Assembly (NCBI GenBank): GCA_964435115.1
Contig: CAYSYM010000014.1
Location: forward strand, 115 to 64,114
DNA length: 64,000 nucleotides
Direction: 5' to 3'
Source: an uncultured Chloroflexota bacterium
Lineage (GTDB): Bacteria > Chloroflexota > UBA6077 > CF-72
Made by a program: the position numbers and the translations under genes. Of the stretch, positions 32,496 to 48,748 are shown piece by piece. A model generated the notes under the pieces. The model was given only the letters and a program-made list of their open reading frames with translations. It did no database searches and was not told the origin of the DNA. Within the stretch, counting starts at the first letter, position 1, and each line of letters opens with the position of its first letter.

Positions 32496-33998
32496 TTATA
32501 CGGGCGCACCTTCGACCTCCCGCCGGTCCGCGGGCCCGACCTCTCGCTGGGCGGAGGATGCGCGCGCCTCCACGCGACCGCGCGCGGACAGCACGTTGGC
32601 CGCGGCTACGCCGAGCAGAAACAGCGCCAGCGGCTGGACCTGCATCAGCAGCCGGGTCGCGGAGGTCTGCACCTGGAGCGCTGGCGACGACCCGGTAACG
32701 AGGAACGCGGCGAAGGTCGCGCCGAGCTGCGCGAGCACTACCAGTGCCAGGAACCGCCACGGGGCGCGCAGCAGCGTCGCGCCGAGGGTGGCAGCGCCGA
32801 CGACCACGACGACCCACCCTCCGCCGGTGCGGACCCCGCCGAGCACAGCCAGCAGGGCGCGTACGACCTCGCCGATGGCGTCCACCCGCAGCGCGCTGAT
32901 GTGCTCCCCCGTCACCTCGATTCCGCGCAGGTTGCGGAACAGGGTCCACGGGAGGGAGAGCAGGAATGCGCCGCCCGCGTAGACGGCCGGGGCGCGCAGC
33001 GCGGACCACCGGCTGGTTCGAGCGGCCAGACCCTCAAGCAGGAGGATGCTGGCGATCAGCGCCACCCGGAAGAGGCCTTCGTACTTGCTCAGCGCCGCTC
33101 CTCCGGCGAAGAGCGCGGCGATCAGCAGCCAGGCAGCGCTCGGCGTGGCACGCTTCGGCGCAAGGTCGCCCAGCACGTGGGCCTGTTCGGGCACGTGTCG
33201 CAGGTCTGCCGCTCGCGTCCACTCGAAGAGGGCGAGCACGCTCAGGGAGAGGTAGGCGGTGAGGATGAGGTCGGCCTGGCCGGTCCAGAAGCTCTCGAGG
33301 AGCTGGGTGGTCCCTAGCAGGATGCCTGCGGCGACATACGGAGCCACCCGCGGCTCTCTCAGGACGAGGCGCGCGTGCCACGCGGCGCAGACGATGAAGG
33401 CCGACCCCAGGAGTGCCCAGATGACCTTGACCTGGTCGATGGCCGCCGCGCCGCGGTGCAGGTAGAACCACGCTTCAAGCAGCGGCACGAGGGGCGGGTA
33501 GTAGGAGTGCGCGCTCGGCACGTCGACGATCGTGGCGGCGAGGAAGAAGGCCTTCGCTTTCAGCCCCCAGTGTGAGTAGGCGTCCCACCCGGCCTCGGGC
33601 ACGAGCGTCGACCGGAGGGTCGCTCCAGCGAGGACGGCCGCGAGTGCGAGCCAGCCCAACCGACTGGGCAAAGGGGGCCAGCCGCGGCCGCCCGGTCTGG
33701 CCAGGGCGGGCGGCGGATCCACCCCTGGCGTGCGGCGCGCCAGGAACCGCAGGCCGAGCGCTGCTCCGGATGCCACCAGCAGCGTGCCGGGGATGAACCG
33801 GAACGGAACCCTGGCCAGGGCCTGCAGCAACAGCGCGACTGCCACCAGCAGGGCGCCGACGAGCAGCCACAGCGCGAGGCGCACGCCGAGCGGCGCCCGC
33901 TCGCCGCCCGGCCAGTCCAGCCCACTCAGCCTGCCCAGCCCCAGCCATTCGAGGGTGACCAGGAGGAGCGCCAGGCCGGCGCCGGCGTCGAGGCTCAT
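32496..33998 (-). CDS. Polytopic membrane protein of unknown family (about 12 TM), possibly GT-C/polymerase-like
   Basis: ATG 33998 overlaps the stop of the upstream small gene (ATGA). 500 aa, hydrophobic throughout. The 167 upstream codons in the track ORF are Arg-rich shadow sequence. Confidence 0.65.
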   Translation of the reverse strand: MSLDAGAGLALLLVTLEWLGLGRLSGLDWPGGERAPLGVRLALWLLVGALLVAVALLLQALARVPFRFIPGTLLVASGAALGLRFLARRTPGVDPPPALARPGGRGWPPLPSRLGWLALAAVLAGATLRSTLVPEAGWDAYSHWGLKAKAFFLAATIVDVPSAHSYYPPLVPLLEAWFYLHRGAAAIDQVKVIWALLGSAFIVCAAWHARLVLREPRVAPYVAAGILLGTTQLLESFWTGQADLILTAYLSLSVLALFEWTRAADLRHVPEQAHVLGDLAPKRATPSAAWLLIAALFAGGAALSKYEGLFRVALIASILLLEGLAARTSRWSALRAPAVYAGGAFLLSLPWTLFRNLRGIEVTGEHISALRVDAIGEVVRALLAVLGGVRTGGGWVVVVVGAATLGATLLRAPWRFLALVVLAQLGATFAAFLVTGSSPALQVQTSATRLLMQVQPLALFLLGVAAANVLSARGRVEARASSAQREVGPADRREVEGAPV

Positions 33999-34444
33999 GG
34001 GCTGTCGACCACGAGGACGAATCGGCGCGCGTCGAGCGCCACCCGGCGGAACCACGGGCGGGGCTGGAGGAGGAAGTAATCCGCCGGGTAGAGCGCCGCA
34101 TCGGGCACGACGATGTACTGGGCGCCATTGCGCCGGGCGAGGAGGCGGACCGATGCCTCGTCGGGCAGCCCACTGAGGTCGTCGTACCGCCGGGGGTACA
34201 GCTCGTAGCGGAGGCGCGGGCCAACTCCGGTCTCGCCCCCGTACGCTCTGGGCTCGACGTAGACGTACGCCGCGCCCTCGGGCACCACCTCCAGGGCGAA
34301 CGGAATGAACGGTCGAACGATCTCCCCTATCGGCACCTCGGCCGGCTCGACCAGCCGTGAGAGTCGGACGAGGCTCAGCGCGCTCCAGGCTACGACGAAG
34401 AGGACGAGCGCGCTCCTGCGCGCCTGGCCGAGCGAGCCGTTCAC
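33995..34444 (-). CDS. Hypothetical membrane-anchored protein, translationally coupled to the downstream membrane protein
   Basis: GTG start. N-terminal TM (ALVLFVVAWSALSLV) is followed by a 120-aa soluble domain. ATGA overlap with the next gene. Confidence 0.55.
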   Translation of the reverse strand: MNGSLGQARRSALVLFVVAWSALSLVRLSRLVEPAEVPIGEIVRPFIPFALEVVPEGAAYVYVEPRAYGGETGVGPRLRYELYPRRYDDLSGLPDEASVRLLARRNGAQYIVVPDAALYPADYFLLQPRPWFRRVALDARRFVLVVDSP

Positions 34445-34516
34445 AGGGGGCGAGTCTACAGCCAGACCGCCCCCGGTAGCGTCCGCGCCGCGCCGTCATC
34501 TACTATCCCCCGCCTG

Positions 34517-35266
34517 GTGAGGTCCGACGTCGATCGTCCCCGCGTCCTCGCCCTCGTGCCCGCGCGCGGTGGATCCAAGGGCATCCAGCGCAAGAACGTG
34601 CGCCTCCTGGGCGGCCAGCCGGTTGTGGCGTACGCGATCGCCGCCGGCCTCGGCGCCAGCTCGGTGGACCGCGTGGTGTGCTCGACGGACGACGCGGAGA
34701 TCGCGGAGGTCGCACGCGCCTACGGGGCGGACGTCCCGTTCCTCCGTCCGGCGGAGCTGGCCCGGGACGACACGGAGGACTGGCCGGTCTTCGCCCACGC
34801 GCTGCGGTGGCTCGAAGAGCACGAAGGGTGGGTGCCCGACCTCGTCGCCAACCTGCGGCCCACGTCGCCGTTCCGCCGGCCCGAGCACGTCGATCGCGCC
34901 GTCGAGCTGCTGCTGCGCACTGGGGCCGACTCGGTTAAGTCGGTCTCCCTGGCGCGCCAGCACCCGCACAAGATGTGGACGTTCGCGCCGAACGGCTCCG
35001 ACCTGCTGGAGCCGTTCGTGAAGAGCGCCTTCCGCCTCGCGCGCGGGCCTGACGTGCCGCGGGCGCAGCTTGAGCCCGTCTACTGGCAGAACGGGCTCGT
35101 GGATGTGACCCGGCGCGCGGTGATCCTCGATCAGGGGGTTATGATCGGGGCGACGGTCGCCGGGTTGGTCACGGACCCGACGGACGCGATCGACCTCGAC
35201 AGCCCGCTGGATCTTGCGTTCGCGGAGCTCGCCATGGCGCATCGGGCCGGGCCGCCCTCGGTATGA
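34517..35266 (+). CDS. neuA: Acylneuraminate cytidylyltransferase family protein (CMP-nonulosonate synthetase)
   Basis: VLALVPARGGSKGIQRKNVRLLGGQPVVAY...VVCSTDDAEIAEVA...LRPTSPFR are the CTP_transf_3 signature motifs. Confidence 0.88.
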   Translation: MRSDVDRPRVLALVPARGGSKGIQRKNVRLLGGQPVVAYAIAAGLGASSVDRVVCSTDDAEIAEVARAYGADVPFLRPAELARDDTEDWPVFAHALRWLEEHEGWVPDLVANLRPTSPFRRPEHVDRAVELLLRTGADSVKSVSLARQHPHKMWTFAPNGSDLLEPFVKSAFRLARGPDVPRAQLEPVYWQNGLVDVTRRAVILDQGVMIGATVAGLVTDPTDAIDLDSPLDLAFAELAMAHRAGPPSV

Positions 35267-36357
35267 AGGCGCTCGTGGTCGGTCTCGGCTCGATCGGCCG
35301 CCGGCATGCGCGCAACTGGGCCGCGCTCGGGCTTGGCGAGGTGTGGGTGTGCCGCCAGGCCAACCGACCCCAGCCCGAGCCCCTCGGCGTGGAGGCGCGG
35401 ACGTTCTACGATCTGGGCGCGGCGCTCGCGGCGGACCCGGACATCGTGCTGGTGACCAACCCCAGCAGCCTGCACGTGGCAACCGCGCGCCGCGCCGTGC
35501 AGGCGGGGTGCCACGTGTTCATCGAGAAGCCGCTGGGCTCCTCGCTCGACGGCGTCTCCGAACTGCTGGCGGAAGCGCGCCAGGCGGCGCGGCGGGTCAT
35601 GGTGGGGTACAGCCTGCGCTTCCACCCCGGACTGGCTCGATTGCGCGACCTCCTGCACGCCGGCGCCATCGGGCGTCCCATCTCCGCGCGCGCCGAGATG
35701 GGCGAGTACCTGCCCGGATGGCACCCCTGGGAGGACTACCGCACCGGCTACAGCGCGCGCCGTGACCAGGGCGGTGGGCCAGTGCTGACATTCAGCCATG
35801 AGATCGACTCGCTCTGCTGGCTGCTGGGACGCCCGCGGCGGGTCCTGGGCCTCGCGCGCAAGGTGAGCGAGCTGGAGGTCGATACCGAGGATGTCGCCGA
35901 GATCCTCCTGGAGTTCGACGCCGGAGCCCTCACCTCGATCCACGTCGACTACGTCCGCCGCCCGCCCCGACGGTCCGTCGAGGTCGTCGGCGACGAGGGC
36001 GTCCTGCGGTGGGAGTACGACGAGAACCGCCTGGCGGTCTTCACCACGCGCTCCGCCCAGTGGCGGGTGGAAGAAGGGCGGCCCACTTTCGCCCGCAACG
36101 AGCTGTTCCTCGACGAGCTGCGCGCCGTGGCGACGGCCGTGGCTGGCGGACGGGCGGAGCCGCTGGCGGATGGCCTGCAAGGTGCGGCTATCCTTGCCGT
36201 GGCCTTGAGCGCGCTGCGCTCGTCGGCCGAGGGCCGCGCGATCGACCTGACCCTTGAGGAAGCTGGAGAGACTGCCGCGTGGCTGAGCAGCCTGGAATCC
36301 CCCCGAGTATCCCCCGCGTTCCCGCTCCCGAGCTCTTTCGCCTCGACGGCCGGGTAG
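35263..36357 (+). CDS. Gfo/Idh/MocA family oxidoreductase
   Basis: ATGA overlap with neuA. MKALVVGLGSIGRRHARN...HVFIEKPLG. The 3' end overlaps the next call by 79 nt, so that gene's start is uncertain. Confidence 0.82.
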   Translation: MKALVVGLGSIGRRHARNWAALGLGEVWVCRQANRPQPEPLGVEARTFYDLGAALAADPDIVLVTNPSSLHVATARRAVQAGCHVFIEKPLGSSLDGVSELLAEARQAARRVMVGYSLRFHPGLARLRDLLHAGAIGRPISARAEMGEYLPGWHPWEDYRTGYSARRDQGGGPVLTFSHEIDSLCWLLGRPRRVLGLARKVSELEVDTEDVAEILLEFDAGALTSIHVDYVRRPPRRSVEVVGDEGVLRWEYDENRLAVFTTRSAQWRVEEGRPTFARNELFLDELRAVATAVAGGRAEPLADGLQGAAILAVALSALRSSAEGRAIDLTLEEAGETAAWLSSLESPRVSPAFPLPSSFASTAG

Positions 36358-37142
36358 CGCTCGTCACCGGTGGAGCCGGCCTGCTCGGGCGGCGCTACTG
36401 CGAGGCGCTCGTGGAGGCCGGCGCGACGGTCGTCGTGGCCGACCTGGACGGCGCACGGGCCGAAGCAGTCGCCGCGGCGATCTCCCGCGAGCGCGCGCTC
36501 GGGCTGCCCCTCGACGTGAGCGACGAGGAGTCCGTTGGCGCGGCGACGGCTCGCGCCGTGGCGCGTTTCGGACGCCTGGATATCCTCGTCAACAACGCCG
36601 CCCTCACGGTGCGTGGCGGCTCGGAGCGCCTCGACGATTACTTCGCCCCGTTCGAGCGCTACCCCCGCGACCTGTGGGACCGGGCCATCGCGGTGAACCT
36701 GACCGGTATGATGCTGTGCGCCCAGGCCGCCGGGCGCCAGATGCTCCGCCAGGGCGGCGGGGTGATCGTCAACATCGCCTCGACGTACGGCGTCGTGGCG
36801 CCCGACCAGCGCCTGTACGATGGGGTGAAGAGCCCGTACGCTGACACCGGGTTCAACACCCCCGTCAGCTACGCCGTCACCAAGAGCGCGGTGCTCGGGC
36901 TGACGCGCTACCTCGCGACGTACTGGGCGGGGAAGAACATCCGCGTGAACGCGCTCACGCCGCACGGGGTGTACGACAAGCACGACGCGACGTTCGTGCG
37001 GAACTTCGCCAGCCGCTCGCCGCTCGGGCGCATGGCGCGCGATGACGAGTACCGCGGTGCGTTGTTGTTCCTGGTGTCCGACGCCTCTTCGTACATGACC
37101 GGAGCCAACCTGATCGTCGACGGCGGGTGGACCGCGTGGTGA
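36279..37142 (+). CDS. Short-chain dehydrogenase/reductase (SDR)
   Basis: GRVALVTGGAGLLG (TGxxxGxG), NNAA, and Y..TKSAV (YxxxK) motifs. The GTG at 36279 follows GGAGAG. Confidence 0.85.
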   Translation: MAEQPGIPPSIPRVPAPELFRLDGRVALVTGGAGLLGRRYCEALVEAGATVVVADLDGARAEAVAAAISRERALGLPLDVSDEESVGAATARAVARFGRLDILVNNAALTVRGGSERLDDYFAPFERYPRDLWDRAIAVNLTGMMLCAQAAGRQMLRQGGGVIVNIASTYGVVAPDQRLYDGVKSPYADTGFNTPVSYAVTKSAVLGLTRYLATYWAGKNIRVNALTPHGVYDKHDATFVRNFASRSPLGRMARDDEYRGALLFLVSDASSYMTGANLIVDGGWTAW

Positions 37143-37153
37143 GCGGGAAGACG

Positions 37154-38206
37154 ATGCGCATCGGCCGCCACGTCGTCGGAGACGGGCAGCCATGCTTCGT
37201 GATCGCCGAGGGCGGAGTCAACCACAACGGCGATCCGGCGCTCGCCGACGAGCTCGTCCGCATCGCCGCCAGCGCGCGCGCCGACGCGGTCAAGTTCCAG
37301 AAGCGGACTATCGCGGAGATCCTGACGCGGGACGCGTTTGACGCCCCGTACGTCCACCCCAACTCGTTCGGGGCGACGTACGGGGAGCACCGCCTGAAGC
37401 TCGAGCTGCCAGACGAGGTGTGGCGATCCCTGCGCGACCTGGCGACCGAGCTGGGCCTGGAGTTCATGGGCAGCGCCTGGGACAGGCCGAGCGTCGACTT
37501 CCTGATGGAGCTGGACCCCCCAGCGTTCAAGATCGGCTCCCCGGACCTGACCAACCTCGAGCTCCTGGATCACACGGCGCGGCTCGGGCGGCCGATCATC
37601 CTCTCGACTGGGATGAGCACGCTGGAGGAGGTCGACGAAGCCGTCGGGACGATCCTGCGCCACACCGATCAACTGATCCTTCTCCAGTGCACGTCGACGT
37701 ACCCGTCGGAATTCGCGGAGATCAACCTGCGCGTCATGCAGACGTACCGCGAGCGGTACGGCGTGCTCGTCGGCTACTCGGGCCACGAACGGGGGATCAG
37801 CGTTACCGAGGCGGCGGCTGCCCTGGGCGCGTGTGTGGTCGAGCGCCACTTCACGAAGGACCGAACGCTGCCAGGACCCGACCACGCGGCCTCGCTGGAG
37901 CCCGTAGGGCTGAGCAAGCTGGTGCGGGACATCCGGGCGATCGAGCTGGCGATGGGCAGCCCGGAGAAGCGGATCCTCCCGTCTGAGGTCGAGAAGCGGG
38001 CGCGGCTGGCGAAGAGTGTCGTGTCGGCGTGCCGCATCCCCGCGGGCGCGGCGATCGGCCGCGAGATGCTGGCGGTGAAGTGTCCGGGGTCGGGCATCGC
38101 GGCGAATCGGCTGGCGCAGCTCGTGGGCCGGGTCGCTCCCGTGGAGGTCCCCGCCGACGCGCTGCTCCCGCTCGAGGCGCTCGAGTGGAGGCGGGACGGC
38201 GCGTGA
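37154..38206 (+). CDS. neuB: NeuB-family nonulosonate (N-acylneuraminate/KDN, possibly 9-phosphate) synthase with C-terminal SAF domain
   Basis: CFVIAEGGVNHNGD...AVKFQKR...FKIGSPDLTNLELL...ILSTGMST...LLQCTSTYP...GYSGHE...VVERHFT motifs. The start could be ATG 37154 or GTG 37136/37139. Confidence 0.9.
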   Translation: MRIGRHVVGDGQPCFVIAEGGVNHNGDPALADELVRIAASARADAVKFQKRTIAEILTRDAFDAPYVHPNSFGATYGEHRLKLELPDEVWRSLRDLATELGLEFMGSAWDRPSVDFLMELDPPAFKIGSPDLTNLELLDHTARLGRPIILSTGMSTLEEVDEAVGTILRHTDQLILLQCTSTYPSEFAEINLRVMQTYRERYGVLVGYSGHERGISVTEAAAALGACVVERHFTKDRTLPGPDHAASLEPVGLSKLVRDIRAIELAMGSPEKRILPSEVEKRARLAKSVVSACRIPAGAAIGREMLAVKCPGSGIAANRLAQLVGRVAPVEVPADALLPLEALEWRRDGA

Positions 38207-38769
38207 CCCCGGCCGGCCTGGAGCGGGTGGACGCGGCCCGCGCCCTCCTGGAACGGGCCCGGCGGGTCCGTTTGGTGTGCCTCGACGTCGACGGCGTGCT
38301 CACCGACGCCGGCATGTACTACGGCCCCGACGGCGAAGTGCTGAAGAAGTTCAACACCCGGGACGGGATGGGCCTGGCGCGTCTGCGCGAGGCAGGTGTG
38401 GCGGTCGCCATCGTCTCTGGCGAGGACAGCGCCATCGTCCACGCGCGGGCGGCCAAGCTGAAGATCGACGACGTGTTCTGTGGCGCCACCAACAAGCGGG
38501 CGGCGATCGATGCGCTGCGCGCCCGACACGGTGTCTCGTACGCGGAGATGGCGTTCGTTGGCGATGACCTCAACGATCTCCCGGCCCTGGAGTGCGTGGG
38601 GCTGCCGTGCGCCGTGGCGGACGCCGCATCCGCGGTCAAGCAGGCCGCGGCGTACGTGACGCGGCGGCGCGGCGGCGACGGCGCGGTGCGCGAGCTGTGC
38701 GACCTCCTGCTTGCGGCGCGGGCCGGGCTCGCCGCCGACGACGCGAGCCTCGCGGCGCTCGTGGGGTGA
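38203..38769 (+). CDS. HAD-IIIA KdsC/YrbI-family sugar-acid phosphate phosphatase
   Basis: GTGA overlap with neuB. VCLDVDGVLTD (DxDGT/V nucleophile motif)...FNTRDGMG...VGDDLNDLP. Confidence 0.88.
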   Translation: MTPAGLERVDAARALLERARRVRLVCLDVDGVLTDAGMYYGPDGEVLKKFNTRDGMGLARLREAGVAVAIVSGEDSAIVHARAAKLKIDDVFCGATNKRAAIDALRARHGVSYAEMAFVGDDLNDLPALECVGLPCAVADAASAVKQAAAYVTRRRGGDGAVRELCDLLLAARAGLAADDASLAALVG

Positions 38770-38770
38770 C

Positions 38771-39649
38771 GTGGCGAGCAAGCGCTCCGCGCTTCACGTT
38801 TTCTTGAGGCCTCAGGACGTGGACGCCAAGGCCGGGGGATCGGATCGAGTTCCAGGCCACGCGCTGAGCGGCCGGCTGCGAGAGCTGTACCGCTACCGCG
38901 AGATTCTGCTCATGCTGGTGCTGCGCGACCTGCAGGCGCGCAGCAAGCAGGCCTACCTGGGCTACTTCTGGATCCTGGTGCAGCCGCTCTTGCTGACGGG
39001 CGTCTTCACCTTCCTGGTGCAGGTGGTGCTCGGCCGCCGGGACCTCTCGGACGTCCCCTACCCCGTCTTCCTGATGGCGGCGCTGATCCCGTGGCAGTTC
39101 TTCACGACGAGCCTCAGCGAAAGCGCTGAGAGCCTCGTGAAGAACGTGGACCTGGTCCGCCAGGTCTATTTCCCGCGCGAGATCCTGGCGGTGTACCCGG
39201 TCATCGCGCGGCTGGTCGACGTCGCCATCTCCAGCGTCGCGCTCGCGGTGCTGATGGTGATCTTCCGGGTTCCACCCTCGGGCTGGGTCGTGCTCGCGCC
39301 CGTGCTGCTGGCGATCGAGATGCTGTTCCTCGCCGCGTTCGGGCTGGTCCTGGCGGCCGCGAACGTCGCCTGGCGCGACATCGCGCGCGCCCTGCCACTG
39401 GTGCTCGCGCTGCTGCTGTATGCCGTCCCGGTCCTGTACACCGCCGATCGGGTGCCCGAGGCGTTCCGCCCCCTCTACTCCTTGAACCCCATGGCGCATC
39501 TAGTCGAGAACTTCCGGGCGGCTGTCCTGGGGACCCGTCCGCCCGACCTGGTCGCCATCGGCCTGCTCGCGCTCGTCGGCATCGTCGCGCTGCTCGTAGC
39601 GCAGCGGGTCTTCAGCGTGTTCGACGCCATCCTGGCTGATGTCATCTAG
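38771..39649 (+). CDS. wzm: ABC-2 type polysaccharide export permease
   Basis: YRYREILLMLVLRDLQARSKQAYLGYFWILVQPLL is the Wzm/TagG signature. About 6 TM. The start could be GTG 38771 or 38819. Confidence 0.88.
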   Translation: MASKRSALHVFLRPQDVDAKAGGSDRVPGHALSGRLRELYRYREILLMLVLRDLQARSKQAYLGYFWILVQPLLLTGVFTFLVQVVLGRRDLSDVPYPVFLMAALIPWQFFTTSLSESAESLVKNVDLVRQVYFPREILAVYPVIARLVDVAISSVALAVLMVIFRVPPSGWVVLAPVLLAIEMLFLAAFGLVLAAANVAWRDIARALPLVLALLLYAVPVLYTADRVPEAFRPLYSLNPMAHLVENFRAAVLGTRPPDLVAIGLLALVGIVALLVAQRVFSVFDAILADVI

Positions 39650-39726
39650 GCGCTTGGCGCTTCGTGTGCGAGAAGGCTCCGGAGGGGGGCCACTGTGCGG
39701 ACCGGTTCCGCGGAGGTGCGGCCCGC

Positions 39727-40938
39727 GTGCGTAGCAGCCGACCGGCCCGGGTGGAGCTGGACCACGTCTGGAAGCGCTACCTGCTGGGGAGCCGGGCGGG
39801 CGCGCGCGACGCGCTACTCGCGCTCCTCACGCCGGGTCGCATGACGCGAGCGCTACTCTGGTCCCTCCAGGACCTGTCGCTGCGCGTGGACGCGGGCGAA
39901 TCGGTTGGCATCATCGGCCGCAACGGCGCCGGTAAGACCACGACGCTCAAGCTCCTGGCCGGGATCACCCGGCCGACACGGGGGCAGGTGCGCGCAGGGG
40001 GGCGGGTGGCGGCGCTTATCAATGTCGGCGCCGGGTTCCACCGCGAGCTCACCGGCCGGCAGAACGTCTTCTTGAACGGTGTCATCCTGGGGCTCACCCG
40101 GCGCGAGATCGAGCGGCGCTACCAGGCGATCGTCGACTTCGCCGACCTTGCTCCCTTCATGGGCACCCCCGTGAAGCACTACTCCGCGGGCATGTACGCG
40201 CGTCTGGCGTTTGCCGTCGCGGTGCACGTCGAGCCGGAGATCCTGCTGGTCGACGAGATCCTCTCCGTGGGCGACGCCGCGTTCCAGGACCGCTCACTGC
40301 GGCGGATGCTGGCCTTCCGAGAGTCCGGCACGGCGGTCGTGTTCGTCTCCCACAACCTCTCGGCCGTGGAGCTGATGTGCCAGCGTGTGGTGTGGCTCGA
40401 CCGGGGGCAGGTGCGTGCCATTGGCCCGGCTTCGGACGTCATTCGCGCCTACCTGGATGCCCTGGACGATCCGGACTCGGAGGACGCGGTGGCGCATCCA
40501 TCCATGGCAGTCCAAGCGGTCGAGGTGCTTGACAGCCACGGGCAGCCGAGCGGCCGCCTCCAGGGCGACGAGCCCTTCACCGTGCGCATCCTCGGGCACG
40601 TGCACCGCGAGCTGCTGGAGCCCGCCTTCATCGTGACGATTCGCGGGGATGCTGGCCCACTCTTCGCGGGGAACATGCTGGTCGACGGGAGCTGGCCTGG
40701 CCGTCTCCCGCCGGGGCCGTTCCGGCTCGAGTGCGCCTTCGGCCCGCCCATGCTGCGGCCGGGGCCGTACCGTGTCGAGGTGAAGGTCAAGCAGAACGTG
40801 CGGACGAACTACTTCGAACCCCGCGTCCTGGCGCGCTTCGTCGTCGGAGACCCCTCTGGTAACGCTTCGGGTGGCGCGGTGAAGTATGCGTGGCGGTTCC
40901 TGCCAGGGCGCTGCGGCCCGCCTCCCACCCCGTCGTGA
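39727..40938 (+). CDS. wzt: Polysaccharide export ABC transporter ATP-binding protein with C-terminal beta-sandwich (Wzt_C-like) extension, copy 1
   Basis: The GTG at 39727 lies 10 nt after GGAGG. GRNGAGKTTTLKLL, YSAGMYARLAF, ILLVDEILSVGD. A ~150-aa C-terminal extension (AVEVLDSHGQPSGRLQGDEPFTVRI...). Confidence 0.88.
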   Translation: MRSSRPARVELDHVWKRYLLGSRAGARDALLALLTPGRMTRALLWSLQDLSLRVDAGESVGIIGRNGAGKTTTLKLLAGITRPTRGQVRAGGRVAALINVGAGFHRELTGRQNVFLNGVILGLTRREIERRYQAIVDFADLAPFMGTPVKHYSAGMYARLAFAVAVHVEPEILLVDEILSVGDAAFQDRSLRRMLAFRESGTAVVFVSHNLSAVELMCQRVVWLDRGQVRAIGPASDVIRAYLDALDDPDSEDAVAHPSMAVQAVEVLDSHGQPSGRLQGDEPFTVRILGHVHRELLEPAFIVTIRGDAGPLFAGNMLVDGSWPGRLPPGPFRLECAFGPPMLRPGPYRVEVKVKQNVRTNYFEPRVLARFVVGDPSGNASGGAVKYAWRFLPGRCGPPPTPS

Positions 40939-40948
40939 AGGACGCCCG

Positions 40949-42211
40949 GTGAACGCCGCCCTCCAGCTCGACCGCGTCTCGAAGCGCTACTTCCTGGGCG
41001 AGAGGGGCGGCCTCTTCGGCCTCGGGCGCCGCGCGGCGCGCCAGGAGCTGTGGTCGTTGCAGGATGTCAGCCTGCGCGTCGAGCCCGGCGAGTCGGTCGG
41101 CTTGATCGGGCACAACGGCGCCGGGAAGACCACGACGCTCAAGCTCCTGGCCGGGATCACACGCCCCACGCGGGGGCGCGCCGTGACCCACGGCCGGCTC
41201 GCCTCCCTGATCAACCTGGGCGCCGGGTTCCACCGCGAGCTGACCGGCCGGGAGAACATCTTCCTGAACGGCGTCATCCTGGGGCTCACGCGGCGGGAGG
41301 TGCGCGAGCGGTTCGACGCGATCGTAGAATTCGCCGAGCTCGGGCCATACATCGACACGCCCGTCAAGCAGTACTCGTCCGGCATGTACGCTCGGCTCGG
41401 GTTCGCCGTAGCTGCGCACGTCGAGCCGGACATCCTGCTGGTGGACGAGGTCCTCTCCGTGGGCGACGTGGCATTCCAGGACCGCTCCTTCCGCAAGATG
41501 CTCGCTTTCCGCGACCGCGGCTGCAGCATCCTCTTCGTCTCCCACAACCTCTCGGCCGTGGAGCTGATGTGCCAGCGGGCGATCTGGCTCGACCACGGAC
41601 GGGTTCGTCTGGAGGGAGCCTCCTCCGACGTGGTGCGAGCCTACGTGAGCGAGGTCGACGAGGAGGTGATGTCGTCCACGGCAGCCACCACGGGCGGTCC
41701 TGGCGACGGGGCGCTGGTCGTCGAGGACGTGACGGTCCACGGCCAGGGCGGCACGCTTCGCACCGACTTCGCGTACGCGGAGCCGCTCACCGTGCGGTTC
41801 CACTGCGTCGCCCAGGCCGACGTGGAGCAGGCGAGCTTGAGGGTGACGGTTCGCGGTGACTACGGCCCGCTCTTCTCGGCGGCGTTCCCACCGGACGGCG
41901 GACACGCGTGCTGGCCGCCCGGGCGGCACGTCCTGGAGTGCGTCTTCGAGACGCTGCCGCTGCTGCCGGGCCTCTACCGCGTGGAGACGCTGGTGTCGCA
42001 CGCCCAGAGCCGAGCCGATGAAGTGCCCCGGGCGCTCGCAGCCTTCCGCGTCGGCACCGACCTGTCGGCGTTCGGGAGCGACAGCGTCGTCGGGCTGACC
42101 AAGTCGCGGGGTGGGTTCCTGGCGGTCCCGTACCACTGGCGGCTGGAGTCTGCGGATGGCGTGCGGGACCTGCCCGGCCTCACCCTCCCCCGGCCCACCG
42201 AGGCGGTATAG
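40949..42211 (+). CDS. wzt: Polysaccharide export ABC transporter ATP-binding protein with a divergent C-terminal extension, copy 2
   Basis: The GTG at 40949 follows GAAGGA. GHNGAGKTTTLKLL, YSSGMYARLGF, ILLVDEVLSVGD. A ~170-aa C-terminal extension (VVEDVTVHGQGGTLRTDFAYAEPLTVRF...). Confidence 0.88.
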   Translation: MNAALQLDRVSKRYFLGERGGLFGLGRRAARQELWSLQDVSLRVEPGESVGLIGHNGAGKTTTLKLLAGITRPTRGRAVTHGRLASLINLGAGFHRELTGRENIFLNGVILGLTRREVRERFDAIVEFAELGPYIDTPVKQYSSGMYARLGFAVAAHVEPDILLVDEVLSVGDVAFQDRSFRKMLAFRDRGCSILFVSHNLSAVELMCQRAIWLDHGRVRLEGASSDVVRAYVSEVDEEVMSSTAATTGGPGDGALVVEDVTVHGQGGTLRTDFAYAEPLTVRFHCVAQADVEQASLRVTVRGDYGPLFSAAFPPDGGHACWPPGRHVLECVFETLPLLPGLYRVETLVSHAQSRADEVPRALAAFRVGTDLSAFGSDSVVGLTKSRGGFLAVPYHWRLESADGVRDLPGLTLPRPTEAV

Positions 42212-42343
42212 CCCGCCAGCCGGCCGGCTGGCGGCGTGGAGCGCGCCCGCGCGACGCGCGGGTCGAGCGCGTGGCGAGGAGGAGCCAGGAGCCTCTCCTA
42301 CCGGGCAGCCCTATCATTGGCGCGCAACGATGCGAGGGCTACG

Positions 42344-43159
42344 GTGACGGCCCCGGGGACGAACGCCCGAGTAGTGGTAGTGATGCCAGCGTACAACGCG
42401 GCGCGGACGCTGGAGGCGACCTACCGCGGCCTGGCGATGGACGTCGTCGACGAGGTGATCCTGGTGGACGATGTGAGCCAGGACGCGACCGTGGAGATTG
42501 CCGAGCGGCTGGGGCTGCAGGTGGTGGTGCACGTGCAGAATCGCGGCTATGGAGGCAACCAGAAGACGTGCTACCTGGAGGCGCTGAAGCGCGGGGCGGA
42601 TGTGGTGGTGATGGTCCACCCGGACAACCAGTACGACTCGACGCTGGTCCCAGAGCTGATCCGGCCGATCCTGGCCGGGGAGGTGGACATCGTGCTGGGC
42701 TCGCGGATTCTCAGCGGGACGGCGCTCTCAGGCGGCATGCCGCTGTGGAAGTACGTGGCCAACCGCTTCCTGACGGGCGTGGAGAACCTGGCGTTCGGGC
42801 TGCGCCTGTCGGAGTACCACACGGGGTTTCGGGCGTACAGTCGGCGGCTGCTGGAGACCCTGCCGTTCCTGCTGAACTCCGACGACTTCGTCTTCGACCA
42901 GGAGATCATGGCGCAGGCGGTTGGTTTTGGCTTTCGGGTGGGTGAGATTCCGGTGCCGACGCGCTACTTTCCGGAGGCATCGTCGGTGAACTTCCGGCGC
43001 AGCGTGCAGTACGGGCTGGACGTGCTGGGGCTGGTGGGGCGGTACCTGCTGCACCGGGGCGGGCTGGTGCGCCGCCGCCAGTTCTCGGCGCGCCTGGAGG
43101 AGATCCTGGCGCCGCGCCACCGCGCGGCGATCCTGCGCAGCGCTGACCCGCGCTCGTAG
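42344..43159 (+). CDS. Glycosyltransferase family 2, polyprenyl-phosphate sugar synthase type (DPM1/ArnC/GtrB-like)
   Basis: VVVVMPAYNAARTLEATY...VILVDDVSQDATVEIA...GYGGNQKTCY...VMVHPDNQYD. The start could be GTG 42344 (GAGGG upstream) or 42236. Confidence 0.85.
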   Translation: MTAPGTNARVVVVMPAYNAARTLEATYRGLAMDVVDEVILVDDVSQDATVEIAERLGLQVVVHVQNRGYGGNQKTCYLEALKRGADVVVMVHPDNQYDSTLVPELIRPILAGEVDIVLGSRILSGTALSGGMPLWKYVANRFLTGVENLAFGLRLSEYHTGFRAYSRRLLETLPFLLNSDDFVFDQEIMAQAVGFGFRVGEIPVPTRYFPEASSVNFRRSVQYGLDVLGLVGRYLLHRGGLVRRRQFSARLEEILAPRHRAAILRSADPRS

Positions 43160-43202: not shown

Positions 43203-44921
43203 GTGGCCGTCCCCCTCGCCGGTACCGGCTCCGACCGCGCGCGGACGGGCCCCGCATGGCAGCGCGCTCGCCCGCGGCTGCGCGGTGCGCTTGTCCATCC
43301 GCTCGTGCCGATCCTGCTCCTGGCCGCCGCGCTCCGGCTGTGGGGGCTGGCCGACCAGCCCGCGCTCTACTTCGACTCGGGCGTCTACCTGGGCGAGGGG
43401 CAGTTCCTCGCCAGCGCCGCCGAGCGAGCCATCAGCGCCCTGGTGCAACCGGCGCCGGACGCCTCGGGCGACCCGCTGGAGCGGGTCGTGCGAGCCGTCG
43501 AGCGCGGTACGCTAGCGCACCCGCCGGACATCGGCAAACCCGGCCACGCAATCCTGCTGGCGGTGTCCATGCTGCTGCTGGGCAAGACCGTCTTCGCCGG
43601 CGCGCTCGTCTCAGCGCTCGCCGGCGTGGGCGCGGTCGCCACCACCTACGCGCTCGGCGCGCTGGGTTGGGGCCGGCGTGTGGCGATCCCGGCGGCGCTC
43701 TTCCTCGCCGTGTCCGGCCAGCACCTGGTCTACTCGCGTGAGCCGCTGGTGGAGTCCGACGGCCTCTTCTTCGCGGCCCTAGGTGCCCTGGTCTACCTGC
43801 GTGGCGTGGCGCGGCCGGAGCGAAGCCTGCGGCCGCTGGTGCTGGCCGGGCTCCTATTCGGCCTGGCGTTCACCTCCAACAGCCGCTTCTCCTACTGGCC
43901 GGCTGTGCTCCTGCCGCTAGAGCTGGCCCTCTGGCGGGATGCCGGCTGGCGGCGCTACCGGCGCCTCGCCGAGCGCGGGGCGGCACTGGTGCTCGGGTTC
44001 GTCGCGCCGCTGGCCGCCATCGAAGCGCTGTACGTCCTTGCCCGCCTCGTGGGCCGCGCTTACGGCGCCAGCACTGCCTGGCTGGATTACGCCCAGCAGC
44101 TCGCGGCCTTCTGGCGCATGAACGCGCCAGACCGGATCCGCTGGGACGAGTGGCCCACGTACTACGTGGACGTCGCCCTCATGGATGGCATCCTGGTGCT
44201 GGCGCTCGCGGTCGCCGGCGTGGCGCTCGCCCTCGGGCGCCGGTCGCGCTCCGACCTCCTCCTGCTCGGCGGCCTCCTCGTTCCGGTGGCGCTGTACAGC
44301 GTCTACTCGACCGGCGAAGTGCGCCTGCGCCACTTCTCGCTCGCCCTGCCGTGGCTCATGCTCGCCGCCGGACTCGGGACCGACGCCGCGGCGCGCCTCC
44401 TCGCCCGGGCAGTGCGCGTCCGTGCGGGGGCTCTGACAGCCGTCGTGACGACCGGCGTCGTCCTGCTCGCCCTGCCGCGCGTGGCGGCGCTCCTCGCGGC
44501 GCCCAACGCGCTGCCAGGCTTGCTGGAGTATCTCGACCGGCAGGGGATCGACCGCGTCGCCAGCACGAACGGGCCGGTCCTCGGCTTCCTGATCGGGGAG
44601 GAACGCACCAATGCACGCCTGCGCCCGGCCTTCGTCAACACCCCCGCCGATCTCGAGGCGATCGCCAGGGAGTACCCGTACCTCGTCGTCGACATGCAGG
44701 CCTCCCTCTTCCCGGGCGAGCTCACTGCGCGCTACGACGCCGCCCAGCCCGTGCTGGCGTTACCCCACGGGAACGGCGCCTGGTACCTCGCGGACCTCCT
44801 GGACCACTATGGCGTGGCCTGGGGCCAGTGGGACTGGCTGCTCCGCCTGCGGGACACTCAGCGGGCCTCGGCCACCCAGCTCCGCCTCTTCGATACGCGC
44901 AGCTTCCTGCCGCCACCATGA
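43203..44921 (+). CDS. GT-C fold membrane glycosyltransferase (family 39/83-like, ArnT/PMT_2 type)
   Basis: 572 aa, polytopic. The N-terminus PILLLAAALRLWGLADQPALYFDSGVYL is typical of PMT_2/ArnT-like enzymes. It lies directly after the polyprenyl-P sugar synthase. Confidence 0.75.
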   Translation: MAVPLAGTGSDRARTGPAWQRARPRLRGALVHPLVPILLLAAALRLWGLADQPALYFDSGVYLGEGQFLASAAERAISALVQPAPDASGDPLERVVRAVERGTLAHPPDIGKPGHAILLAVSMLLLGKTVFAGALVSALAGVGAVATTYALGALGWGRRVAIPAALFLAVSGQHLVYSREPLVESDGLFFAALGALVYLRGVARPERSLRPLVLAGLLFGLAFTSNSRFSYWPAVLLPLELALWRDAGWRRYRRLAERGAALVLGFVAPLAAIEALYVLARLVGRAYGASTAWLDYAQQLAAFWRMNAPDRIRWDEWPTYYVDVALMDGILVLALAVAGVALALGRRSRSDLLLLGGLLVPVALYSVYSTGEVRLRHFSLALPWLMLAAGLGTDAAARLLARAVRVRAGALTAVVTTGVVLLALPRVAALLAAPNALPGLLEYLDRQGIDRVASTNGPVLGFLIGEERTNARLRPAFVNTPADLEAIAREYPYLVVDMQASLFPGELTARYDAAQPVLALPHGNGAWYLADLLDHYGVAWGQWDWLLRLRDTQRASATQLRLFDTRSFLPPP

Positions 44922-46709: not shown

Positions 46710-47358
46710 CGAACAGGAGCTGTGGGATTGCTACAACGGCCTGCTGCTCAGCCCGGACGTGGAGCGGATCCGCAAGCTGCTCGTGCGCTACGAGCTGTTC
46801 AAGCTAGCGCTCGACGTCCCGGGCGACGTGGTCGAGTGTGGCGTGTTCAAAGGGGCCGGCCTGATGTACTGGCTGAAGCTGCTGCGCATCTACGCCCCGG
46901 CGGCGCGCAAGCGCGTGGTTGGCTTCGACACCTTTGGCGCGTTCGCGGACTCGCTGCTGCCGTACGAGCGCCAGACGGCGCAAGCGTACGTCGACGAAGC
47001 GAGCTTCGCCGGCGCGGATCCCGCGGCCATGCTGGCGCTGGCAGGCGAGGCCGGGTTCGAGGGACAGGTCGAGCTCGTGCCGGGTGACGTGCGGGAGACC
47101 GCCGCCCGGTACGTGCGGGAGCACCCCGGGTTCCGCGTCTCACTGCTCCACCTTGACCTGGACACTTACGTGGGGACCAGGGCCGCCCTGGAAGCGCTCT
47201 ACCCGGTCGTCGTCCCGGGTGGTGTCGTCGTGCTCGACGAATACGGGCAGCCCGGCTGGGGCGAGTCAGATGCAGTGGACGAGTACTTCGCCGGCCAGGC
47301 CATCCGGATCCGTCGCGTGCCCTTCTCGAACAAGCCAACCGCCTTCATCGTCAAGTGA
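46702..47358 (+). CDS. TylF/MycF-family (macrocin-O-methyltransferase-like) SAM-dependent methyltransferase
   Basis: The ATG at 46702 follows GGGAGAG and overlaps the upstream stop. GDVVECGVFKGAG...LLHLDLDTY...GGVVVLDEYG are the TylF-type motifs. Confidence 0.8.
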   Translation: MPSEQELWDCYNGLLLSPDVERIRKLLVRYELFKLALDVPGDVVECGVFKGAGLMYWLKLLRIYAPAARKRVVGFDTFGAFADSLLPYERQTAQAYVDEASFAGADPAAMLALAGEAGFEGQVELVPGDVRETAARYVREHPGFRVSLLHLDLDTYVGTRAALEALYPVVVPGGVVVLDEYGQPGWGESDAVDEYFAGQAIRIRRVPFSNKPTAFIVK

Positions 47359-47416
47359 TGGCACCCCACGCCTCCCGCGGGCGCCGCAGCGTGTAGACTC
47401 ACGCTTCGCGCCGCCG

Positions 47417-48748
47417 ATGTCGTTTCGGAACATCTACCTGACGGTCCAGACCGGCATGGCCGTCCGCGACCTGCTGCGGTGTGGCCCGCTCGACCGGGTG
47501 CTCCAGCACCCGGACGCCCGGGTCGTGCTGCTAACCGGCGGCCAGAGCGACCCGGCGTTCGTCGCCGAGTTCGCTCGCGAGCGCGTGGTGATCGCCGCGC
47601 ACCGGCGCTACGAGCCCACGCCCATGAAGTGGCGGCTGGCCACGCGGCGCTGGCGCTACGCCCGGAGCGCCTGGGTGGCCGACGCGATGAACCGGGTCGA
47701 GGAGCTGCTCGTCCCCAGGGATGTCTACGCGGACCTGTTCCAGGCGTACCCGCCGAGCCTCGTCGTCTCCGGCGATCCGCTGCGACCCGGCGACACCAAC
47801 CTGGTTGCCCAGGCGCGCCGGTACGGCGTCCCATCGCTGGGCAGCGTGCGGAGCTGGGACAACGTCCTGAAGCGGCTCCGGGTGCGCCCCGACGCGGTGA
47901 CCGTGTGGAGCGCGATCAACGCGCGCGAGGCAGTGGCGGTAGACCTGTTCCGGCCAGAGGACGTCATCCAGGTCGGCGCGCCGCAGCTCGATCCCTACTT
48001 CCGGCCCGAGGCGTGGGTGCTATCGCGTGAGGAGTTCTGCCTGGCGCGGGGGCTCAACCCCCACAAGAAGATCCTCCTCCTCGCCACCAGCTCCTTCACC
48101 TACGAGAGCGACCAGACCTACCTGGTCGACATCGTCCTGGACGCCATCCGCTCCGGCGAGATCCGCCATGACGTCCAGGTCGTGCTACGGCTGCACCCGG
48201 ATGACCGCGTTGGCCGCTACCTCAAGTACCGCCACGCGCCGGAGGTCACCCTCGACATCCCGGAGTCCTACCTGGCGACCCTGGGCTGGACGATGAGCCT
48301 GGCGGACATCCACCAGATGGGCAACCTGCTGCGGCACGCCGACGTCATGGTGAACTTCGCCACCACGGTCACGCTGGAGTGCGCGATCTTCGACACCCCA
48401 ACGCTCCTGGTGGCCTTCAGCCCCATCGATCCAGCCGAGATCGAGCGCTACGTCGTCGGCTACCACTTCAAGATGCACTACAAGGGCCTGGTCGAGCGCG
48501 ACCTGGTACCCATCGCCTGGAGCCGCGGCGAGCTGGTCGGGTGGATCAACCGCTACCTGGACGACCCCTCACTCTACCGGGCGCAGCGCGCCGAGATCGT
48601 CCGCGACTGGGTCCAGTTCACCGATGCTCGCTCGGGCGATCGGCTGGGAGACGCCATCCTGCGACAGGCGTGCCTGGAGCCGCCGCCGACACGGCTGGGT
48701 CCCGAGCCGAGAACTCCCGGGGCGCGCGTGCCCGCCGGCGTGCGGTGA
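47417..48748 (+). CDS. Unclassified GT-B-like transferase with an HP motif (TagF / KpsC-KpsS / sialyltransferase-like logic)
   Basis: 443 aa. KKILLLATSSFTYESDQ...VQVVLRLHPDD...LLRHADVMVNFATTVTLECAIFDTPTLLV resembles the C-terminal Rossmann half of HP-motif transferases. No confident family assignment. Confidence 0.6.
   Translation: MSFRNIYLTVQTGMAVRDLLRCGPLDRVLQHPDARVVLLTGGQSDPAFVAEFARERVVIAAHRRYEPTPMKWRLATRRWRYARSAWVADAMNRVEELLVPRDVYADLFQAYPPSLVVSGDPLRPGDTNLVAQARRYGVPSLGSVRSWDNVLKRLRVRPDAVTVWSAINAREAVAVDLFRPEDVIQVGAPQLDPYFRPEAWVLSREEFCLARGLNPHKKILLLATSSFTYESDQTYLVDIVLDAIRSGEIRHDVQVVLRLHPDDRVGRYLKYRHAPEVTLDIPESYLATLGWTMSLADIHQMGNLLRHADVMVNFATTVTLECAIFDTPTLLVAFSPIDPAEIERYVVGYHFKMHYKGLVERDLVPIAWSRGELVGWINRYLDDPSLYRAQRAEIVRDWVQFTDARSGDRLGDAILRQACLEPPPTRLGPEPRTPGARVPAGVR

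Follow-up and report, generated by a model that had tools for sequence, protein, structure and literature searches.

A predicted Kdn-9-phosphate-type cassette combined with an Ela-type oxidoreductase module in a cell-surface glycan locus of an uncultured Chloroflexota bacterium

What sugar acid is made where a NeuB-family synthase gene is coupled to a KdsC-family phosphatase gene and preceded by two oxidoreductase genes? This question is raised by five plus-strand genes at positions 34517-38769 of a 64-kb stretch of DNA (positions 115 to 64,114 of contig CAYSYM010000014.1, hereafter the window) from an uncultured Chloroflexota bacterium. A previous sequence-only reading had described them as an operon for a nonulosonic acid made through phosphorylated intermediates, in the manner of 2-keto-3-deoxynononic acid (Kdn) 9-phosphate, with two extra oxidoreductases. 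From sequence and gene context, we estimate a probability of about 0.6 that the cassette combines a Kdn-9-phosphate-type pathway with an Ela-type module otherwise found in legionaminic-acid (Leg) clusters, and the product would probably be the cytidine monophosphate (CMP)-activated sugar CMP-Kdn or an epimer of it. The whole window has a GC content of 70-75%, and most listed open reading frames (ORFs) are therefore shadows; real genes were chosen by GC content at the third codon position (GC3), and families were assigned by Pfam and NCBIfam profile searches. The five genes, each backed by a GC3 frame signal, and the families proposed for them earlier were borne out as follows (SDR, short-chain dehydrogenase/reductase; HAD, haloacid dehalogenase):

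34517..35266, plus strand: CMP-nonulosonate synthetase, a cytidylyltransferase of the PseF/LegF/ElaB type (PF02348, 62 bits)
35263..36357, plus strand: Gfo/Idh/MocA oxidoreductase of the PtmF/ElaA subfamily, proposed (CMP-)nonulosonate dehydrogenase (Pfam, plasmid homologues)
36279..37142, plus strand: SDR of the PtmA/ElaC subfamily, proposed stereoselective ketoreductase (identity, loop motif)
37154..38206, plus strand: NeuB-family nonulosonate-9-phosphate synthase, probably Kdn-9-phosphate synthase (PF03102 and SAF; alternative starts GTG 37127/37136/37139)
38203..38769, plus strand: KdsC-family HAD phosphatase with Kdn-9-phosphate phosphatase marker residues (TIGR01670)

The junctions between these genes agree with the earlier description of an operon. 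The cytidylyltransferase and Gfo genes overlap in an ATGA (35263-35266), and neuB and the phosphatase gene overlap in a GTGA (38203-38206), both as previously read. The 79-nt overlap at 36279 between the Gfo gene (stop at 36357) and the SDR gene is also real, because GTG 36279 is the only possible start of the SDR, no other in-frame start codon being available after the preceding stop and ahead of the Rossmann fold. At the SDR/neuB junction, an overlap depends on a GTG start, as had been stated: the SDR stop codon occupies 37140-37142 and would be overlapped if neuB began at GTG 37127, 37136 or 37139, whereas the ATG at 37154 leaves an 11-nt gap. The same junctions are tight or overlapping in related contigs, and the gene arrangement is therefore not a matter of chance. 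What did not stand was the end of the operon at 38769, since a gene for a Wzm-type permease can start at GTG 38771, one base past the phosphatase stop at 38769, and co-directional genes continue to ~ 56.3 kb. Given the exporter and glycosyltransferase genes around the cassette, the five genes are therefore the 5' precursor module of a ~ 22-kb co-directional cell-surface glycan locus that depends on an ATP-binding cassette (ABC) transporter. A scan for promoters and terminators gave nothing above chance.

The first point to settle is whether the synthase resembles enzymes that use phosphorylated sugars. Its membership in the NeuB family is evident from matches to PF03102 (274.5 bits) and to the SAF/AFP-like domain PF08666 (24.9 bits). 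Across almost the entire protein, it shares 42% identity with human NANS (269 bits), versus 31% (150 bits) with NeuB of Neisseria meningitidis; the human sequence was confirmed as an exact database match. In a rough neighbour-joining (NJ) tree, human NANS nests among the retrieved NeuB relatives, and the meningococcal enzyme is a distant outgroup. Phylogenetic placement of NeuB, which had been suggested as a check of the earlier proposal, thus groups it with human NANS and phosphatase-linked bacterial NeuBs and not with the Neisseria enzyme. A preference of the window NeuB for a 6-phospho-sugar is predicted from this closeness.

Residue comparisons point the same way at the level of the clade. 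Arg314, at which the PDB has a Neisseria NeuB variant, is an essential residue of the N. meningitidis enzyme. The corresponding column holds Cys in the window NeuB and Gly, Ser or Cys in its nearest genomic relatives (80 of 80), and NANS, like the window NeuB, is without the Neisseria arginine. Two columns were tried as finer markers and rejected. The Arg314 column separates the whole clade from the meningococcal enzyme but does not separate phosphatase-linked from unlinked NeuBs. The position of NANS Met42, considered as a discriminator between Kdn and N-acetylneuraminic acid (Neu5Ac), is Met in human, Thr in rodents and Ile in the window; the column is variable and unrelated to the presence of a phosphatase.

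The next question is whether the neighbouring HAD protein is a phosphatase of the Kdn-9-phosphate type. It passes the subfamily model TIGR01670 (156 bits, cut-off 107) and, like BT1713 of Bacteroides thetaiotaomicron, has the catalytic DxD together with the equivalents of Arg64, Glu56 and Lys67 (SGEDSAIVHARAAKLK). The Glu56/Lys67 pair is present in all 37 NeuB-linked homologues examined, which come from many phyla, while in all five solved structures of the KdsC type, of which three were deposited as KdsC, position 56 is Arg and position 67 is one of Thr, Ser, Asp and Glu. The BT1713 sequence used for numbering is that of PDB 3e81 (100% match). Entry 4hgq is the BT1713 E56A mutant and entry 4hgr is the E56A/K67A mutant; Glu56 and Lys67 are therefore the residues that were studied. 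The pair reportedly marks the Kdn-9-phosphate phosphatase lineage and is said to support the binding of Kdn-9-phosphate.

A phosphorylated route also implies that certain genes should be missing, and the searches agree with this. Pfam searches of the ORFs with coding signal between 274 and 63653, all but a few short ones, revealed no Epimerase_2 (NeuC), DegT or hexapeptide acetyltransferase domain, and none of the scanned window ORFs belonged to a NanE- or NeuE-like family. Six-frame tblastn with LegC, NeuC/LegG, LegH, PtmE and DegT queries gave no match in the 64 kb. These queries were taken from annotated Leg clusters, as was a LegB query, which matched only two generic epimerase/dehydratase genes located 17 kb from the cytidylyltransferase-Gfo-SDR trio. 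In the related contigs L001, L002 and L004, no NeuC, LegC, LegH, PtmE or DegT gene was found within 10 kb on either side. The earlier statement that the operon has no NeuC or aminotransferase gene can therefore be extended to the whole window. Together, the grouping of NeuB, the marker residues of the phosphatase and the missing NeuC and aminotransferase genes support the phosphorylated-intermediate, Kdn-9-phosphate-like reading.

What, then, are the two oxidoreductases between the cytidylyltransferase and the synthase? Their presence had been recognised correctly, but they do not stand as unexplained extras, since with the cytidylyltransferase they make up a trio known from Leg clusters. In Acinetobacter baumannii KL49, ElaA (Gfo/Idh/MocA), ElaB (cytidylyltransferase) and ElaC (SDR) form a discrete module, for which oxidation of CMP-Leg5,7Ac2 at C8 by ElaA, followed by reduction to the 8-epimer by ElaC, has been proposed (PMC13656337). 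PtmF, LegF and PtmA are listed as an oxidoreductase, a CMP synthase and a flagella-modification protein, respectively, and this trio occurs in Plesiomonas, Vibrio and Campylobacter (PMC4481668). As proxies for ElaA/ElaC and for Cj1330/Cj1332, we compared the window proteins with the products of genes at the PtmF and PtmA positions of plasmid Leg clusters; the plasmid collection comprised 72,556 plasmids, 157 of which had NeuB matches.

All eight plasmid matches of the Gfo protein (E<=1e-20) come from plasmids that also bear NeuB, at a distance of 2-17 kb from its gene, and the two that were inspected occupy the PtmF position of canonical clusters with the order LegB-LegC-NeuC-NeuB-LegH-PtmE-Gfo-cytidylyltransferase-SDR. 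The trio is also present in the Leg clusters of Rhizobium WL3 and Sphingomonadaceae. In reciprocal tblastn searches, proteins from the PtmF position matched only 35263-36357 and not a second Gfo/Idh/MocA gene of the window at 21772-23100. The block YLPxWxPxxDYRxxYSA...GGG is shared with the PtmF-position proteins and missing from that paralogue. K89 and H179 correspond to K91 and H181 of ElaA, with the same spacing of the catalytic Lys and His. Among the PDB entries nearest to the Gfo protein are 1,5-anhydrofructose reductase and scyllo-inositol dehydrogenase.

With the SDR at the PtmA position in the Rhizobium WL3 Leg cluster, the window SDR shares 48% identity (223 bits), while no SDR in the PDB exceeds 130 bits. 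Its five top plasmid matches are all on NeuB-carrying plasmids, ~ 0.1-15 kb from the NeuB homologue. The spacing from the catalytic Ser to Tyr is 30 residues, compared with 23 in the Sphingomonad PtmA-position SDR and in 6uh2, the closest solved relative of ElaC and the entry used for solving it, and 10-13 in the ordinary SDRs 3qiv and 4ni5. The window protein has the motif S-x-Y-G...P-D-x-R-x-Y...P-V-x-Y-x-x-x-K (STYGVVAPDQRLY...TPVSYAVTK). An elongated substrate loop, V150-P165, has been described for ElaC, with Tyr147, Tyr157 and Pro165 highlighted (PMC13656337); equivalents of these three residues are present in the window SDR. For the cytidylyltransferase, PseF scores highest among the NCBIfam models (133 bits, under the cut-off of 205.7), the PDB matches include NeuA (9ftb) and PseF (6ifd, the template used for solving ElaB), and identity to the counterparts in two Leg clusters is 31-33%. 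By comparison with the Leg-cluster proxies, the three window genes are the PtmF/LegF/PtmA (ElaA/ElaB/ElaC) trio of legionaminic-acid clusters. The Leg context expected around such a trio was not found by tblastn, as LegC, LegG, LegH and PtmE are all missing from the window.

How widely is this combination distributed? Among the NeuB homologues listed (at least 120, with 70-78% identity), all are metagenomic, and the few with a source name are Chloroflexota metagenome-assembled genomes (MAGs). Three related contigs and two genome loci share the array neuA, Gfo, SDR, neuB, HAD, Wzm, Wzt ... Wzt, GT2, PMT_2, TagB-like at 59-85% identity, together with two divergent genes upstream. In a grouping of 80 genome loci, NeuBs at ~ 48-63% identity mostly belong to a plain neuA-neuB-HAD trio found in many phyla, including archaea. 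This suggests that the trio of cytidylyltransferase, synthase and phosphatase genes is widespread across bacterial and archaeal phyla and that one uncultured lineage joined it with the oxidoreductase pair of Leg clusters. In the searched literature, we found no description of a Kdn pathway combined with a Gfo/SDR pair, nor of nonulosonates in Chloroflexota.

Some other loci recovered in these searches have architectures of their own. In an Anaerolineae group (L079, 1-11527, and ~ 20 similar loci among L046-L085), NeuB is fused to AP_endonuc_2, a xylose-isomerase-like TIM barrel, and is accompanied by a PtmF-like Gfo, a PtmA-like SDR, neuA and a fusion of cytidylyltransferase and HAD; the same loci carry a sulfotransferase, ATP sulfurylase/APS kinase and a Capsule_synth protein, which hints at a sulfated nonulosonate. 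A plasmid of Methylomagnum ishizawai (L091, NZ_AP019784.1, 165.8-173.3 kb) encodes a 301-aa NeuB-family protein without the SAF domain, a HAD-IIIA hydrolase, a PtmA-like SDR (48% identical to the window SDR), a class-III aminotransferase, a split transketolase and a 'glycosyltransferase family protein' of the size of a cytidylyltransferase. This cluster looks like an uncharacterised pathway of the amino-ulosonic-acid type. In the window itself, a threonine-synthase-like gene (2614-3726, plus strand) has no database homologue above 56% identity, while the cassette proteins reach 59-85% to Chloroflexota MAGs; the contrast would be explained by very sparse sampling of the lineage, by unusually strong conservation of the cassette or by its horizontal sharing.

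Comparison with known systems shows which parts of the cassette are familiar. The CMP-Kdn pathway of B. thetaiotaomicron consists of Kdn-9-phosphate synthase (BT1714), Kdn-9-phosphate phosphatase (BT1713) and CMP-Kdn synthetase (BT1715) (PMC6200933). The window shares with it a NeuB-family synthase beside a KdsC-family HAD phosphatase and a cytidylyltransferase, without NeuC or an aminotransferase. It differs in having two oxidoreductase genes between neuA and neuB, in a phosphatase that scores below the BT1713 equivalog cut-off, and in the placement of the cassette in an uncultured high-GC lineage, where it feeds a Wzm/Wzt locus. With the Ela and Ptm trios, the window shares the same three families in one adjacent block beside a NeuB-family synthase, the signature block and Lys/His spacing of the Gfo protein and, in the SDR, the long Ser-Tyr loop, the S-x-Y-G motif and the Tyr157 and Pro165 equivalents. 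Unlike those trios, it is associated with a phosphorylated, non-aminated Kdn-type pathway lacking LegB, LegC, LegH, LegG and PtmE, its order is cytidylyltransferase-Gfo-SDR rather than Gfo-cytidylyltransferase-SDR, its SDR loop is seven residues longer, and its identity to the Leg-cluster members is 31-48%.

The Kdn-teichulosonic-acid cluster of Streptomyces coelicolor, SCO4873-SCO4881/2, comprises NanE-like, glycosyltransferase, NeuE-like, NeuA and NeuB genes (PMC3479208, PMC13011467). Like the window, it belongs to a high-GC bacterium and places NeuA and NeuB in a locus for a cell-wall glycopolymer, and its product is a Kdn polymer. In contrast, no Gfo/Idh/MocA or SDR gene is mentioned for the Streptomyces cluster, and the window has Wzm/Wzt export and no NanE-like or NeuE-like gene. 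Orthology with this cluster, suspected from a GC content of 72%, was rejected, as the nearest listed NeuBs are from Chloroflexota MAGs and the composition of SCO4873-4881 differs; the best NeuB from a Streptomyces plasmid is only 45% identical to that of the window. The inferred 9-phosphate intermediate is shared with the animal NANS/NANP pathway, which differs from the window in that the phosphatase of the latter is of the bacterial KdsC family and not NANP, GNE is absent and the genes form an operon with oxidoreductases.

On this basis, the route to the activated sugar can be proposed. NeuB would condense phosphoenolpyruvate (PEP) with a hexose 6-phosphate to give a nonulosonate 9-phosphate; since no gene supplying N-acetylmannosamine (ManNAc) is present, mannose 6-phosphate (Man-6-P) is the most likely substrate, which would yield Kdn-9-phosphate. 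The coupled KdsC-family phosphatase would then take off the 9-phosphate, and the cytidylyltransferase would form the CMP-sugar. As predictions, the synthase, phosphatase and CMP-activation steps are well supported by homology and context. The Gfo/Idh/MocA protein would oxidise one hydroxyl and the SDR would reduce the ketone from the opposite face, a step that probably takes place on the CMP-sugar. By analogy with ElaA/ElaC, the carbon would be C8 of the CMP-sugar and the result an epimer of Kdn, the position and the form of the substrate being the least certain elements.

Several results weigh against the combination of a Kdn-9-phosphate pathway with an Ela-type module. The score of NeuB against the Neu5Ac synthase equivalog TIGR03569 is 333.6 bits, under the cut-off of 399.65. 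Man-6-P and ManNAc 6-phosphate (ManNAc-6-P) are not distinguishable as substrates by sequence, human NANS taking both, and a NanE could be encoded elsewhere in the genome. The phosphatase fails the equivalog models of both KdsC (NF007019, 166 versus 208 bits) and the B. thetaiotaomicron Kdn-9-phosphate phosphatase (NF058599, 137 versus 180 bits), and overall it is nearer to the KdsC structures (distance 1.01) than to BT1713 (1.29). An NJ split between KdsC and NeuB-linked phosphatases was recovered in 81 of 300 bootstrap replicates (27%), and in 11 of 300 (4%) when the two marker columns were removed. A locus in Woeseiaceae (L013) contains neuA-Gfo-SDR-neuB with no phosphatase within 17 kb. 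What the two oxidoreductases do is contested, as Campylobacter PtmF and PtmA have been placed in the part of the Leg pathway that provides the hexosamine precursor. The evidence for the C8 role of ElaA and ElaC themselves consists of knock-outs, crystal structures and docking rather than assays (PMC13656337). Finally, the enzyme activities at this locus are predictions from sequence and context.

For the phosphatase, the preference for the Kdn-9-phosphate type over KdsC, which had been stated from the sequence alone, therefore holds with respect to marker residues and gene context but is not matched by a clean phylogenetic split. Because the global phylogeny fails to separate the protein from KdsC, we base its assignment on the marker residues, on translation coupled to that of neuB and on the conservation of the gene context, which together point to the Kdn-9-phosphate-type lineage.

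Could the oxidoreductases instead act before the synthase? In this case, the product would be plain CMP-Kdn or CMP-Neu5Ac, and the Gfo/SDR pair would supply or tailor the hexose 6-phosphate upstream of NeuB, for example by epimerisation through a keto intermediate. Such precursor supply would parallel the role assigned to Campylobacter PtmF/PtmA. In the literature, PtmA and PtmF are placed alongside PtmE and PgmL in the precursor segment of Leg synthesis, and the conversion of fructose 6-phosphate to glucosamine 6-phosphate (GlcN-6-P) has reportedly been reconstituted with these enzymes. The Gfo and SDR genes also lie directly upstream of neuB and are translationally coupled, and the PDB enzymes nearest to the Gfo protein have free sugars and inositols as substrates. 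Against this, the partners of that route (PgmL, PtmE, GlmU and LegB/C/H/G) are all absent from the window, and the cassette contains no amidotransferase or aminotransferase. In every context seen, the pair goes with the cytidylyltransferase and not with NeuB, consistent with ElaABC as a discrete module. Moreover, many neuA-neuB-HAD cassettes exist without the pair, which is therefore not needed for substrate supply in general. We consider precursor supply unlikely.

It is likewise improbable that the locus makes CMP-Neu5Ac by an animal-like route, in which ManNAc-6-P from a NanE-type epimerase encoded elsewhere would be converted to Neu5Ac-9-phosphate and dephosphorylated, with the oxidoreductases possibly modifying the product. 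This alternative draws on the 42% identity of NeuB to NANS, a human enzyme that acts mainly on ManNAc-6-P, and on SCO4873, the NanE-like member of the S. coelicolor teichulosonic-acid cluster. Phosphatases of the BT1713 type also hydrolyse Neu5Ac-9-phosphate, and the residues predicted to form the N-acetyl pocket of ElaC (Y147, Y157, P165 and F209) are largely kept in the window SDR. However, no NanE, NanK, NeuC or GNE-like gene was found in the 64 kb or in the flanks of L001, L002 and L004, and the Glu/Lys pair of the phosphatase is said to support the binding of Kdn-9-phosphate. Man-6-P is a universal metabolite for which no dedicated gene is needed, and Kdn is therefore the more economical reading.

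That the phosphatase is a housekeeping Kdo-8-phosphate phosphatase (KdsC; Kdo, 3-deoxy-D-manno-octulosonic acid) standing here by chance, and that NeuB uses an unphosphorylated sugar, is highly improbable: although the top-scoring models and PDB matches are KdsC/YrbI and the global phylogeny leaves the protein unseparated from KdsC, it has Glu and Lys where the KdsC structures carry Arg and a non-Lys residue, its gene overlaps neuB in a GTGA, and an overlap with neuB is also seen in the inspected relatives, the marker pair recurs in the 37 NeuB-linked homologues, the window contains no KdsA, KdsB or other lipopolysaccharide gene, and NeuB is without Arg314, a residue required by the Neisseria enzyme that uses an unphosphorylated substrate.

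Where would a Kdn-type sugar from this cassette be used? The neighbouring genes that bear on this question are the following (GT, glycosyltransferase):

32496..33900 (start approximate), minus strand: polytopic membrane protein of ~ 450 aa (GC3 signal only downstream of ~ 33900; no Pfam or NCBIfam match)
33995..34444, minus strand: 149-aa protein with one N-terminal hydrophobic segment (GC3 signal; no Pfam match)
38771..39649, plus strand: Wzm-type ABC-2 permease (PF01061; NCBIfam Wzm/KpsM-like; six hydrophobic segments)
39664..40938, plus strand: Wzt-type ABC ATPase with a C-terminal glycan-binding domain (PF00005 and PF14524 Wzt_C)
40886..42211, plus strand: second Wzt-type ATPase (PF00005 and weak Wzt_C, PF14524; 53-nt overlap with the first Wzt)
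42236..43159, plus strand: GT2 polyprenyl-phosphate glycosyltransferase-like protein (PF00535; NCBIfam PpgS/AglJ-like; 83-85% identical in related loci)
43203..44921, plus strand: GT39/PMT_2-like polytopic membrane glycosyltransferase (PF13231; six hydrophobic segments; conserved in L001 and L002)
47417..48748, plus strand: TagB-like GT-B protein, candidate CMP-nonulosonate transferase (NCBIfam BFO_1060 family, E=6e-9; weak PF04464)
61746..63653, plus strand: WecA/MraY-family polyprenyl-phosphate sugar-phosphate transferase (GT4; family hits)

An ABC-2 permease, ATPases with Wzt_C and a polyprenyl-phosphate initiating transferase, the components of Wzm/Wzt assembly, are thus all present. The Wzm gene occupies the same position in four relatives (L001, L002, L004 and L008). 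A GT4 gene on the plus strand follows the PMT_2-like gene and precedes the TagB-like gene. Between 49862 and 56356 on the same strand are genes for a heparinase II/III-like protein, an AsnB-type amidotransferase, a GT4 and an epimerase/dehydratase that is 36% identical to LegB; farther out, there are more glycosyltransferases, a UDP-glucose dehydrogenase and the WecA-like initiating transferase. Upstream, past the two divergent genes, lies another GT4 gene.

The candidate transferase deserves separate consideration. Its match to the BFO_1060 family is far under the cut-off; BFO_1060/Tanf_01245 are the Tannerella transferases of derivatives of Leg and pseudaminic acid (Pse). The protein has an HP motif at LRLHPDD, and homologues are encoded close to neuB in 13 other loci. 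We moved its start from TTG 46919 to ATG 47417, as the first 166 codons are rich in Arg, Pro and Ser and look non-coding. About 700 bp (46710-47416) are left after the GT4 gene, and an overlapping ORF at 46315-47358 also looks non-coding.

Both divergent genes have counterparts in the related contigs: 149-aa-protein counterparts with 45-53% identity are found at the same position in L001, L002, L004 and L007, and proteins of 441-454 aa without a Pfam match occupy the position of the membrane protein in L001, L002 and L004. A 667-aa ORF on the minus strand (32496-34499) is an over-extension of the latter gene, an artefact of the high GC content. Since both genes are conserved upstream of the cassette in related contigs, their products probably belong to the system.

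Some further features of the region can be recorded. In the related contigs, three or four small genes missing from the window lie between the two Wzt copies and encode a Fer2_BFD protein, one or two proteins without an assigned family and, in L001, also Meth_synt_2. A second AsnB-type gene is located at 26766-28688. The Gfo/Idh/MocA paralogue at 21772-23100 (plus strand) is UDP-GlcNAc 3-dehydrogenase-like (GlcNAc, N-acetylglucosamine; 166 bits, below the cut-off) and not PtmF-like, and no partner aminotransferase for it was found in the window. The transferase at 61746-63653 is fused to a CoA_binding_3 domain as in WbaP and other sugar transferases of exopolysaccharide (EPS) systems, an unusual architecture for an initiator.

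In the proposed scheme, the TagB-like transferase would attach the sugar to a polyprenol-linked glycan built by the neighbouring glycosyltransferases, and Wzm/Wzt would export it. Klebsiella O12 has a Kdo-capped system; by this precedent, and as speculation, the sugar may be either a component of the repeat unit or a chain-terminating cap read by Wzt_C. In its most specific form, the proposal is tentative: the cassette may make an undescribed stereoisomer of Kdn, for example the C8 epimer 3-deoxy-L-glycero-D-galacto-nonulosonate, which the ElaA/ElaC-like pair would form at the CMP-sugar stage and which would be placed on, or would cap, a wall glycopolymer of a Chloroflexota-like soil bacterium.

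What would such a pathway mean? To our knowledge, Kdn-type pathways through a 9-phosphate have been characterised in few organisms, namely Bacteroides, a haptophyte and animals. The role of the oxidoreductase pair is disputed between precursor supply, as assigned in Campylobacter, and C8 epimerisation, as proposed in Acinetobacter; a cassette without amino-sugar genes is a natural experiment on the pair and offers a simple in vitro system of three to five enzymes. If the Kdn-epimer reading is true, PtmF/PtmA and ElaA/ElaC would act on the nonulosonate itself and not in the supply of GlcN-6-P, which would settle the conflicting published assignments. A new Kdn isomer, if it exists, would widen the known chemistry of sialic-acid-like sugars and provide a marker for an abundant uncultured group of soil bacteria.

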